From Saccostrea cucullata (taxonomy: Eukaryota): a stretch of 64,000 nt of DNA. Made by a program: the position numbers and the translations under genes. This document shows, piece by piece, positions 24,166 to 28,328 of this stretch. The first letter of the stretch is position 1; each line of letters begins with the position of its first letter. The stretch spans positions 1-64,000 of the forward strand of contig NW_026921725.1 in assembly GCF_032062105.1 (NCBI RefSeq), written 5' to 3'. Under the pieces are notes generated by a model, which saw only the letters and a program-made list of their open reading frames with translations, was not told where the DNA came from and did no database searches.

Positions 24166-27100
24166 ATGGTTCTCACATACTTAGATGTCCATGAAATCTA
24201 CTTAAAACATAAAAACCGACCAGACTATATGAAATGTTTACATCATGAAATATGCGAAAAATTAAAAGTTGAATTTACAAAGGTGAACCGAGTAAGTCTA
24301 TTGTACAAAGTAACACGCATGAGAAGAGAAATTGATAGATTAAAGAAATTTACAAACAAAGACAGATTAAATTCTTACTTAAGCAATATATTCGAACTGC
24401 CGCATTCTAAACAAGATTCAATAAAAAGTAATGGGAGTGGAGAGGAGACAGACAGTCAGAACTTTGGAAAAGAAGAACAGAGAGGAATTCAGGAAAGTGA
24501 AGCAGTGAATGAGAAATCAAAAATTATATCTGAACAGAATATTGTAATTGAGCACCTGAGGAGGGAGAATGCAGCTCTCAAAGACAAAATTAGAGGTTTT
24601 AATATTAGAAACACAAACAGAAAATTGAAAAAAAAAGATGAAAAAATAAAAAAATTAGAAAATGTTATTAAAAAAATGACAAAAGAAAATGTAAAAAAAA
24701 TTGACAAAAGTGTGCAATGCAATAGTATAAAAACAGTTATTGCTGACTTAAAAAAAGAGATTGATTTTTTAGTGTCAGAGAAAGAAAAGAATTGTGATGT
24801 TGATGATGAAGAATTTGTACATATAAAAAAAAATATAGATTTTAGAGAAAACAGTAAAGGGAAACCTTACAATTTTAAATTAAGAAACTTGTATTATATT
24901 TTTAGAAGTAGGAATATAGCTCTGGTACATATTGCACCAATTATTCAAGCTGTTTTAGATATTTTTAATATTCATGTTGAAAATCTTCCATCAAAAAGTA
25001 CTGCAGGAATTTTTACAAGTGAAATGGGTGTTGTCAGTAGAAGTCATTTGAATGAGGAACTTACAAACAATACAAATATTACTATGCACAGAGATGCCAC
25101 TACAAAGAAAGGCAAACATTTTTATGGTATACAATTTAATACTGGTGAGAAAATTTTATCTGCAGGGTTAAGAGAGGTGTGTGATGGGAAGGGGGAGACA
25201 TATGTAGAAGTTACGAAAGATATTTTATCAGATATTGCTCAGAAAGAGAATGACTGTGATATTATTTTAAACAATGTTTCATGTTTTATGACGGACAGAT
25301 GTGCCACAGAACAGAAAGTTAATGACATTTTGAGTAAAGATATACATCACAATGTCCATTCTTTTAAATGTTCTACACACCCCCTCTTGAATTTTTCCGA
25401 TGTATGCATTGACGAAATTTTTAAAATTGAACAAGAATTGTGTTTTAAATTTCCTGGTTTTAACAATTCATCAAAAGAGCCTTTTACTTTGAATCTTTTG
25501 AGATCTTTTTCTAAAATATTTTTCAAAGATGGGGTAGGTGATCCCCATACTGTTCAAGTGTATTTGAAAAATCATGGTGTTGCAGAGATTCCCATTGTCA
25601 ATTTTAGAGGGAATCGTTTTAATGTAATGTTTTACAATGCTGCAGGTACTTTTTTTTATGCACAAACTTATTTTACAATATTTTTATTCTTTGAAAACTT
25701 CTTACACTCTTATTCAGAATTTTATTATGTCATGTTTGCAGAACAAAACATTTTTAACTCTTTTAAGATCACTTGGCATTTTATGCAAAATTATAACAGA
25801 ACCTTATTTTTTAAAAACAAATGAAGTTGGAAACATTTTAGATATGGGCTCTGTATTTCAGAGATTTTTATATGTTTTGGATTTGTTTATTGAAAATCCA
25901 AAGTTGGCGTTGAATAATGAAGTTTCACTTTTTTATGGTCCATATTTTTATGACGAGGTTTTTGAATTTTTACTGAAGACTTCATTAAATGACGATCTAA
26001 CATGTGTTTTTATAAAGCGTATTTGTACTGTTTTAAAAAGCAAAGGTAGTAAACTTTTTAGTGAATTTTTAAGTGGCGGCAAGTATTTTAATATTACTAC
26101 AACTGATTTACCAGAATGCGAGTCCTGTGACACAAATAACATTTGCATTGAAAGACTGATGGGCCAATTAGATTTCAAATTAAAAGCATCGTCAACATCA
26201 TCTTTAAACACTATCGAAAGTTGCATTTTATATACAAATAATAAAACAGACGATTGGTTAAAAGAGAAAGATTTGAGTAAGCAAGAAGAAATAATTAATA
26301 ATGCTCGTACAGAGAACAGGATGTTTATGCAAAAAGACAAGGATAAGCAAGAAGAACTTTTTATAAAACAAACCAAAATTCTAGAGGAGAAAGAAAAGGA
26401 AGTGCAAAGAAAGAAAGAGAAACAGTCAAAACAATTGGATAATGCAATTGAGGATATGAGAAGGGTAGGACTATGGGAGTGCGAGGAAAAGATAAGGGAG
26501 GAGTTAGAAAAGATGAGAACAAAGAAAGCAAAAATGGAGGCTTTAAAAAAACAAATTAATATTTACAAAAAAGTTTTCAAAATTGACAAGGAGCATAGAG
26601 AATTACTGCAATTCTCATCAAAAGGAAAACAGTTTGACTTGAACAAGTTACAAGAAAATCTTTTACATTTAATAAATTTACGGAAAAATGCACAACAGTC
26701 CAATTTCAAAGCAAGTGATTTAGTAGGAAAAGAAATTGTACATACATGGACGGTCGAGAGTGGGGAAAACAGAGATTGGGAGGGCCAAATAAAGAGTTTC
26801 GAAAAAGGAGTTTACAAAGTAATTGAATATCAGATATAAGTATTTTATCTTCAATAATGATAATTTAACACTGTTTCACAGAATTGCATGGCACTTAACA
26901 AATTTTTAAACCATATCCTCTAAATGAATTTACAAGAGGCCAAATGGCCTTAATGATCACCTGAGAACAATAAAACAGTACAATACAACAATGTAAAGGA
27001 TCTATGGGCAAAGAAAAAGATTTTCCAAGAAATAATGCATTTTTATTGTATAATGACTACCTAAAGCTCCACCCTTCCTCCAAAATTACTTTAGGTAAAG

Positions 27101-28328
27101 GGCTCAGTAATTATTACAGTTGTGCCAAAAGTTTGACTGCTGATTGTCCATGCAAGCATAAAGAAGAAGGTTTTTTTTAAAGATTGCATTAATTCTGATG
27201 GTTTTGGTCCCACCCTATAGGCCGCAGAGGGGCAGAGGCATGAAATTCACAATGTTTGTTTCCCTTTACTCATAGATGCTATATGCCAAAATTGGTTGTC
27301 ATTGGTTCAGCGATTCGAGAGAAAAAGCTGATGATAATAAAATGTTAACAGACAATGCACAATATATCAGACAAAAACAGATAGAAATACATGTACATAT
27401 ATAGATGACTTCAAGAAAGGAAATCTTAGAAGTCAATTCAGAATTTAAGAAACACATACTAAATTATCTGTCTAACAAAAGAAGCTTATTACTTCATTTT
27501 TTAAAGTAAAGTCTTTGCATTATTATCAAAAATACTAGGAATGATGGAAATAACTCAAAAAATTTCAAAGGTTGAATGTAAAATAATTTAAATGTATTAG
27601 AATTGTAAAAATGAATATTATTGAAATTTTTTCAAGAAGTGACAAGATTTCATTTTCTTTAAATTTGCTAGTTCACCAGTTTATTCAACAATTTGAATAC
27701 ATGTATACATCAGTCATCCTTTTTCTTCTTCATATGATGCATTAATCACTGTCTAATTATTAATGGTACTAGTATGTTTATGTCTTGTGCATGTTTTTAA
27801 ATATTCATGCATTGTTTATATTAATGTTTTTGGTGTAAGGTGTATTGCCTAAATGTTCATTTGAAATTTATGTAAGACATATTCAAGTTATAATATTTAT
27901 AACTATATCAGCCATACTCCTAAATTTTATATATTTCATCACTTATTTATGGCTAATAAGAACATCTAAAATTTACATATTATATTGTATAGTTGTTAAT
28001 GAACTAAGGAGCTGATAAGAACAGGATTATAATTCTCCAAACAAATGATATTATAGGTTGTGTACTGGGATGATAAAGAAAGGAAGAATGGCTGTGAGTT
28101 TGAGTTAACAGAGAGAGAAATTAATATCGACATACAGGAAGGAAATCTCTTTATAAAAGGTAATTTTTATTGCATACAGATGTCATTTAAAAACTTTTAT
28201 TTACAGTATTATTGCCTCTCAGCATAATTTGTTCTCCTTTTTGAATATAAAAGAAGATGAATTAATTTATCTTTTATTAATTTTATTTAGATACCGCCAA
28301 ACTGGATCACTGTTACTCAACATTTTAG
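24166..28328 (+). CDS. hAT-like DDE transposase (~930 aa), one +1 frameshift in a T-run, C-terminal Spindlin/Tudor-like module
   Basis: Motifs HRDATTKKG, FMTDRCATE, CSTHPL (CxxH), FRGNRFN, TNNICIERLMGQLD. ORFs 24070-25824 and 25637-26839 join by removing one T at ~25651. Predicted exons 24166-26818, 28057-28159, 28291-28328. Confidence 0.8.
26930..27410 (-). mobile_element. Degenerate HINE-like insertion in the transposase intron
   Basis: Tail acaagaggccaaatggccttaatgatcacctgag, similar to other HINE tails (372, 40030, 43040, 62390). Confidence 0.55.

Follow-up and report, generated by a model that had tools for sequence, protein, structure and literature searches.

A frameshifted hAT-type transposon copy of an oyster whose transposase ends in modules predicted to bind methylated histone and HCF-1

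The DNA analysed here (the window) is a 64,000-nucleotide stretch of the oyster Saccostrea cucullata, positions 1 to 64,000 of the forward strand of contig NW_026921725.1 (NCBI RefSeq assembly GCF_032062105.1). It carries a copy of an oyster cut-and-paste transposon of the hAT type that, judging from comparison of its relatives, has been mobile recently; the window copy itself is frameshifted. The C-terminus of the transposase is completed by two downstream exons, and the domain assembled in this way is, by profile homology and predicted fold, a Tudor barrel of the Spin/Ssty type, followed by a terminal D-H-x-Y motif. The fusion is real, and from it we infer a mechanism. That the tail, through predicted methyl-histone- and HCF-1-binding modules, likely biases insertion is a reading that we hold with evenly balanced confidence.

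In the proposed mechanism, two splices would extend the C-terminus of the transposase with a Spindlin-like Tudor domain followed by a D-H-x-Y motif. The Tudor domain would then bind a methylated histone tail and the D-H-x-Y motif the host scaffold HCF-1; held by both contacts, the enzyme would likely stay attached to open, active chromatin, which would bias its insertion sites. Binding of a methylated histone tail by the domain is probable, binding of HCF-1 by the tail could go either way, and an effect of domain or motif on target choice is possible, if slightly on the doubtful side. In what follows, the window family is the transposon family of the window copy, and L- and P-numbers designate the genomic loci and database proteins compared. 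The spliced clade is the window's clade, consisting of six oyster families, and the intronless clade comprises relatives with the whole Tudor domain in one frame. Coordinates are collected in Table 1.

The junction between the transposase exon and the C-terminal half of the Tudor domain is marked by splice sites common to 20 of 21 sequences from the six families (the window and 20 loci, of which L050 was unparsed), namely an AAA/GT donor and a YAG/GT acceptor, the latter preceding V-x-Y-W. The intron ranges from 675 to 1605 nt across these families, five of which show 38-57% protein identity to the window family. In six pairs from four families, the Tudor half-exon has nonsynonymous differences (pN) of 0.19-0.36 versus synonymous differences (pS) of 0.67-0.88, and the adjoining intron DNA is 33-36% identical; on this codon comparison, the second exon is under purifying selection. 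The join is also present in NCBI models from four oyster species (P0001, P0006, P0007 and P0036-P0038). The phase-0 splice from 26818 to 28057 and the resulting peptide, both put forward in the original prediction, are thus confirmed by splice sites, coding constraint and NCBI models. The check by RNA sequencing that it proposed bears this out in part: the equivalent K/V join was detected in the L042 sister family, and the 26818/28057 join itself was not seen for the window family in four RNA runs. The next join of the window family (28159/28291) is seen in RNA, and its equivalent in the L042 family occurs in all four runs.

The commonest RNA of the L042 family joins the 5′ exons directly to the Tudor half-exon and skips the transposase (42, 21 and 18 reads); it contains an in-frame stop just upstream of the half-exon and no in-frame start codon. 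A derivative of the L042 type lacking the open reading frame (ORF) exists (L225). The RNA alleles match L043-L047, and not L225, at two informative sites, and at two other sites they match no genomic copy, so that an unseen derivative is possible. This skip may be true exon skipping, and skipping of the transposase exon in the sister family would likely limit the amount of enzyme. For the window family, exon skipping was rejected as a sign of regulation, since this family includes ORF-less derivatives that have the same internal deletion. The locus L042:1487-7305 has at least seven exons, and its transposase exon has the ATG roughly 250 nt beyond the last 5′ donor, a spacing also found in the window. 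Within the long intron of the window copy, positions 26905-27300 are a high-copy repeat with very deep RNA coverage. Four loci on the intronless side (L103, L104, L071 and L074) have an apparent intron after the second strand of the domain, and the different intron positions suggest separate intron gains.

The resemblance to Spin/Ssty Tudor-like repeats noted in the original prediction is borne out by profile, AlphaFold2, Foldseek and VIA-align comparisons, the structure check returning a Tudor-like barrel with Spindlins first among the matches listed. With a profile of the spliced clade (19 rows: seven database tails and 12 half-domains), Spindlins were the top 17 of 20 PDB matches (best E 3.9e-5). 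AlphaFold2, run on the clade alignment with a Saccostrea echinata tail as lead sequence (82-97% identical to the two halves in the window), predicted five strands and a helix at a predicted local distance difference test score (pLDDT) of 77. The first 25 Foldseek matches listed were Spindlins (best E 1.4e-3). The best VIA-align match was Spindlin-4 (Z 7.7, root-mean-square deviation (rmsd) 3.2, 67 residues aligned), followed by the Tudor domain of RDM15 (Z 7.3, rmsd 1.7, 56 aligned). Two intronless relatives, L072 and L078, score above the Pfam cut-off for Spin-Ssty and match repeat 2 of Spindlin-1; intronless relatives have the same termini and duplication length as the spliced clade, with which hhalign aligns them at 93%. 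Several results weigh against this assignment: Foldseek gave no match at E<=0.001 and VIA-align none at Z>=8, non-reader SH3-like barrels lie within 1 Z unit of the best VIA-align matches, and no single spliced domain reaches the Pfam Spin-Ssty cut-off (best E 0.004; five of 19 rows weak). A phmmer search of the PDB with one spliced domain or with P0036 returned nothing relevant.

In Spindlin1, the K4me3 cage is formed by F141, W151, Y170 and Y177, whereas E142, D184 and D189 hold A1-R2 of H3; the cage residues of repeat 1 are W62, W72 and Y91 (PMC3967050). By alignment, the four K4me3-cage positions are occupied in all 13 spliced-clade rows by W, W (Y in one row), Y and F or Y, and D184 is kept in all 13. 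A methyl pocket is therefore likely as far as the alignment goes, which is also as far as the aromatic cage proposed earlier is supported. Two points count against it: E142 is kept in one of 13 rows and D189 in none, and the aromatic equivalent to Y177 (F 28099 in the window) hinges, in the alignment alone, on the placement of a three-residue insertion. Because these two anchors of the H3 N-terminus are lost, H3K4me3 is not assured as the mark. A complex prediction of the domain with the unmethylated H3 tail from the Saccostrea genome, in which the alignment was not used, scored 0.02 and speaks neither for nor against binding.

The third exon closes the protein with ...FIK-DTAKLDHCYSTF and a stop in conceptual translation. 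In describing the anatomy of the gene, the original prediction was right about the two-exon join and overlooked both this terminal exon and the frameshift. The motif DH[CS]Y is terminal in all six families; its codons vary synonymously, and the neighbouring residues are variable. It occurs nowhere in the five main ORFs checked, and its chance of occurring in 300 nt is 0.014-0.041 per family, the families being related. The L049 family lacks the second intron in its DNA, and its last exon is continuous with the Tudor exon. The D/E-H-x-Y sequence is the HCF-1-binding consensus (bioRxiv 10.64898/2026.03.19.712392; PMC13631171), through which THAP proteins recruit HCF-1 to promoters (PMC13631171), and binding is favoured by a small x, an uncharged residue at Y+1 and the absence of proline at Y+2 (bioRxiv 10.64898/2026.03.19.712392). 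All three preferences are satisfied in all six families. Binding is made less certain by the report that some D/EHxY peptides bind HCF1 and others do not (bioRxiv 10.64898/2026.03.19.712392), by a bulky residue at H-4 in one of six families, and by the finding that only one of 92 wider relatives has the motif in its last 40 residues, a count in which spliced tails could be missed. From these sequences, the DHxY tail looks specific to the spliced clade. HCF-1 was not found among the three Kelch loci read of 101 genome matches, which by eye encode other proteins.

D317, D384, E669, C409xxH412 and RFN are invariant in all 19 aligned transposases. The Atlas model of the Ostrea homologue P0001 (residues 300-720) has template modelling (TM) scores of 0.65-0.75 to DUF659/Dimer_Tnp_hAT clusters, with predicted models on both sides of the comparison. 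The invariant triad and these TM scores support the earlier assignment as a hAT-like DDE transposase, and the element is filed as divergent hAT-type on its DDE/CxxH signature and core fold model. A single-sequence AlphaFold2 model of P0001 reached a pLDDT of 36 and was left out of the fold search. Pfam gave no match in the enzyme, and none to the hAT dimerisation domain or the BED zinc finger with the window ORFs, P0001, P0004, P0005 or P0036. An intact sibling encodes a predicted 930-aa protein composed of an N-terminal region, a DDE core with CxxH, a long helix, the Tudor barrel, a short linker and DHxY. Classical hAT elements generate 8-bp target-site duplications. Of the 13 end-pairs reported here for 21 loci, 12 have a 7-bp duplication (one was read as 8 bp), and so do nine of nine among 20 more distant loci and 12 of 14 in a third set of end-pairs. 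This length therefore excludes classical hAT and does not exclude the wider superfamily, for Repbase includes hAT families with 7-bp duplications (PMC4455052). A DDE triad with C/DxxH placed after the second D and before E is shared by hAT with P, MuDR, Kolobok and Dada (PMC9587614). The C-terminal ORF has at least 105 matches in the genome, and in many of them a frame of some 900-1030 codons is open. We take the element to belong probably to the subgroup hATw of Repbase/Dfam, which has a 7-bp duplication. The label itself serves as an annotation in PMC12905397 and PMC13465017.

The observed/expected ratio of CpG within 300 bp of 53 spliced-clade sites is 0.89, compared with 0.68-0.70 further out (paired p 0.006, 33/50) and a background of 0.70 in 18 stretches; the sites were de-duplicated only by their 7-mers, and surviving insertions have been filtered by selection. 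Three observations reduce the weight of this rise for targeting: a control family of miniature inverted-repeat transposable elements (MITEs), represented by the element at window positions 56530-58090, has 0.83 versus 0.66-0.68 at 24 sites (p 0.36), the rise in the spliced clade does not differ from that in the control (p 0.37), and eight elements of the intronless clade, whose domain is more Spindlin-like, show no rise. The chromovirus analogy of the original prediction, which hints at landing in repeat-dense heterochromatin, finds no support, since flank repeat cover is not raised (0.115 versus 0.127 in the background, p 0.58, a crude proxy) and CpG is up locally. The site data thus speak mildly against steering to heterochromatin and do not establish a preference for promoters. 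ETS-like and ZNF143-like motifs are in weak excess near sites (5/70 versus 7/594 and 12/70 versus 52/594, uncorrected); as evidence of targeting this excess was set aside, because only two of 10 motifs were nominally enriched. The 28 distinct target 7-mers of L144-L173 have a weak palindromic bias, with C at position 1 (14), T at position 3 (19), A at position 5 (13) and G at position 7 (9).

Other explanations differ in which part of the proposed mechanism they replace. The splice could be a chance reading, with the protein ending a few residues past the donor. The missing K/V join of the window family, two contigs of which read through the donor, would fit this explanation, as would the NCBI models P0002 and P0004, which run unspliced through the same site; these results, and the thinness of the join in the L042 family (one of four runs, only six reads from two starts), weigh against a spliced product. 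Chance is nevertheless highly improbable, given the conservation of splice sites and codon-position bias, the presence of the join in sister-family RNA, and the existence of intronless relatives with the whole domain. If the barrel is genuine, it might still be a structural or DNA-binding SH3-like module, comparable to those of Tn7 TnsB and retroviral integrases, in which no ligand pocket is used. TnsB-type barrels are among its structural neighbours (VIA-align rank 17, Z 5.2) and the spliced clade lies on a very long branch; sequence profiles, however, choose Spindlins and not TnsB, and the lineage as a whole conserves surface aromatics together with an acidic helix, which makes such a role distinctly unlikely.

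A methyl-reading domain could also act in the opposite direction, recognizing repressive marks (H3K9me3, H4K20me3 or methyl-arginine) and steering the element into repeat-rich silent chromatin as chromovirus chromodomains do. The tryptophans at the first two cage positions resemble Spindlin repeat 1 (W62, W72, Y91), the anchors of repeat 2 for the H3 N-terminus are lost, structures of Spindlin1 with H3K9me3 and H4K20me3 peptides exist according to their titles, and the window copy lies among nested repeats. We consider this quite unlikely, however, because the flanks are not more repeat-covered than background by the proxy used, CpG is locally up and not depleted, identity to repeat 1 (0.23) is not above that to repeat 2 (0.25), and HCF-1 is a promoter factor (PMC13631171). 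Domain and motif may instead regulate the element through host factors, at its own ends or promoter or by way of the silencing machinery, and have no effect on target choice. Such regulation would be in keeping with the delivery of HCF-1 to promoters by THAP proteins through the same motif, with a site signal indistinguishable from that of the control family, and with regulated splicing in the L042 sister family; it is without direct support, sits less easily with the weak ETS-like and ZNF143-like excess near sites, and is in our view unlikely. The preferred reading remains that the tail would bring the transposase to active chromatin.

The profile of the intronless clade retrieved 92 proteins, of which 84 match this transposase as well (38 of the 40 that have at least 400 aa), a proportion biased by the transposon-built query, with which only 7996 candidates were scored; five of the eight others are spindlins of the vertebrate type (two by name, three on sequence grounds). 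Fifteen of 23 Spin-Ssty matches in the Saccostrea genome pass the cut-off, and at least nine of these 15 adjoin a transposase match. P0114 and P0119, coral and acorn-worm database proteins named Spindlin-3 or spindlin-3-like, are transposase tails. In the core tree, the spliced clade forms one well-supported side and the domain is present on both sides; the transposase-Tudor fusion is therefore likely old in the lineage, as far as this phylogeny can tell. Spin/Ssty proteins have been described as conserved in vertebrates (PMC3967050). The transposon domains average 36% identity to Spindlin repeat 2, and the Spindlin repeats share 24-26% among themselves. A domain tree (67 rows, 64 columns) was considered as evidence of origin and rejected: without constraint, repeat 2 of Spindlin fell within the transposon domains, but grouping all Spindlin repeats gave a tree that scored better by 8.5 log units and passed the approximately unbiased test (p-AU 0.61), so that the domain tree says nothing on the origin of Spindlin. 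A wider scenario, in which the lineage carries a chromatin-targeting kit (a Spindlin-type reader and, in oysters, an HCF-1 hook) aimed at active chromatin and vertebrate Spindlin, which reads H3K4me3, is a domesticated, triplicated transposase tail, is tentative and somewhat unlikely.

Reader-guided insertion is established for some retroelements, and to our knowledge it has not been established for any cut-and-paste transposase that itself carries a Tudor domain. No description of a Spindlin/Tudor-transposase fusion was found in the searchable literature, a search that lay outside Repbase Reports, subscription journals and supplements, and the excerpts of PMC5718144 and PMC9004415 mention none. 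If the predicted binding is true, the element would be a natural example, open to testing, of how a DNA transposase reads histone marks and hooks a promoter scaffold of its host. It would also supply a new backbone for gene delivery biased by chromatin, and vertebrate Spindlin genes would gain a concrete candidate for their origin. The testable pieces are small: a 70-residue domain and a 12-residue peptide.

The window copy interrupts the 5′ long terminal repeat (LTR) of a Ty3/Gypsy-type element, and its position inside an LTR, recognized in the original prediction, is confirmed by the LTR pair and by the single-copy 7-mer in the 3′ LTR. The insertion is young, because the two LTRs differ by three substitutions and two small indels. 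The frameshift is caused by one extra base in the T-run at 25650-25657 (eight T, compared with seven in L031 and L034). Sibling copies L002 and L004 have open frames and are 99% identical to each other, siblings within families are 98-99.9% identical, and named homologues of the C-terminal ORF occur in oysters, scallops and mussels. L031, L032 and L034 (about 9.5 kb), L035 and L037 are composites whose right end comes from an ORF-less derivative in which the Tudor exon is truncated. A loose end pattern for the intronless clade gave eight matches versus five in the control and was set aside.

Table 1. Features of the transposon copy and its host element (window coordinates)
Feature	Position	Strand	Basis or detail
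Whole DNA transposon copy, 5467 bp	23245..28711	+	Terminal inverted repeat pair and flanking duplication
Left 7-bp target-site duplication	23238..23244	.	Single copy at empty site in 3′ LTR
Right 7-bp target-site duplication	28712..28718	.	Matches left copy flanking the element
Left terminal inverted repeat, 11 bp, TAG start	23245..23255	+	End comparison
Right terminal inverted repeat, 11 bp	28701..28711	-	End comparison
Last 5′ non-coding exon	23848..23916	+	Donor GT at 23917, from RNA of related copies; acceptor predicted from sequence
Main transposase exon, ATG 24166	24166..26818	+	Catalytic D 25093, D 25294, CxxH from 25369, E 26150
Long charged helical (coiled-coil-like) region before Tudor domain	26324..26680	+	Sequence; helical in low-confidence P0001 model
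N-half of Spin/Ssty-like Tudor domain	26720..26818	+	Putative cage W 26747 and W 26777
Phase-0 GT-AG intron, 1238 nt	26819..28056	+	Whole AAA codon precedes donor GT at 26819; acceptor AG 28055-28056
103-nt exon, C-half of Tudor domain	28057..28159	+	Putative cage Y 28063, F 28099; conserved D 28129
Phase-1 GT-AG intron, 131 nt	28160..28290	+	Join in RNA: X15 (3 reads), X1 and X2 (contigs); also in L042 family
Last coding exon	28291..28328	+	D-H-C-Y at 28305-28316; stop 28326-28328
Host Ty3/Gypsy-type LTR element, 5-bp duplication	23128..31118	+	Gag, protease and partial integrase only
Host element LTRs	5′ LTR 23128-23244 plus 28719-28787; 3′ LTR 30931-31118	+	LTR comparison

The host LTR element has no reverse transcriptase match (window 28740-30740) and is an internally deleted copy. 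It was apparently inserted in a stop-ridden remnant on the minus strand at 22300-23127, which we take by eye to resemble a Harbinger-type transposase. The MITE at 56530-58090 has 316-nt arms starting CACAGG, an 8-bp duplication and 887 end matches genome-wide, and tandem arrays with units of about 156 bp and about 148 bp occupy 10378-11765, 47482-48977 and 50800-54800.

Among known systems, Spindlin 1-4 (PF02513; PDB 4H75, 4MZH, 4UY4) share with the transposon domain a predicted five-strand Tudor-like barrel with a helix before the last strand and, by alignment, D184 and aromatics at the four K4me3-cage positions, the fourth subject to gap placement. Spindlins are stand-alone proteins with three tandem repeats, whereas the transposase tail is one repeat of about 25% identity, below the Pfam cut-off, split by an intron and fused to a transposase; it has a shorter second loop, a longer third loop and helix, and has lost E142 and D189. 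With THAP proteins and other HCF-1 partners, the element has in common that an exposed tail, close to a coiled region, bears the consensus motif; it differs in lacking a THAP domain by Pfam and in placing the motif, whose binding is predicted, at the extreme C-terminus of an active-type transposase. The hAT elements (Ac, Hermes, ZBED-type) are similar in their DDE triad, the CxxH after the second D, short terminal inverted repeats starting with TAG, and the core fold, and have R-W-N where the oyster element has R-F-N. The oyster transposase is further set apart from them by a 7-bp and not an 8-bp duplication, by the lack of a Pfam hAT or BED match, and by its C-terminal Tudor domain and DHxY tail. 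Chromovirus integrases, like the oyster transposase, are mobile-element recombinases with a C-terminal reader of the Royal family. Chromoviruses, however, are LTR retroelements whose chromodomains are aimed at heterochromatin, whereas the oyster element is a DNA transposon with a predicted Tudor fold and no heterochromatin bias seen at its sites.

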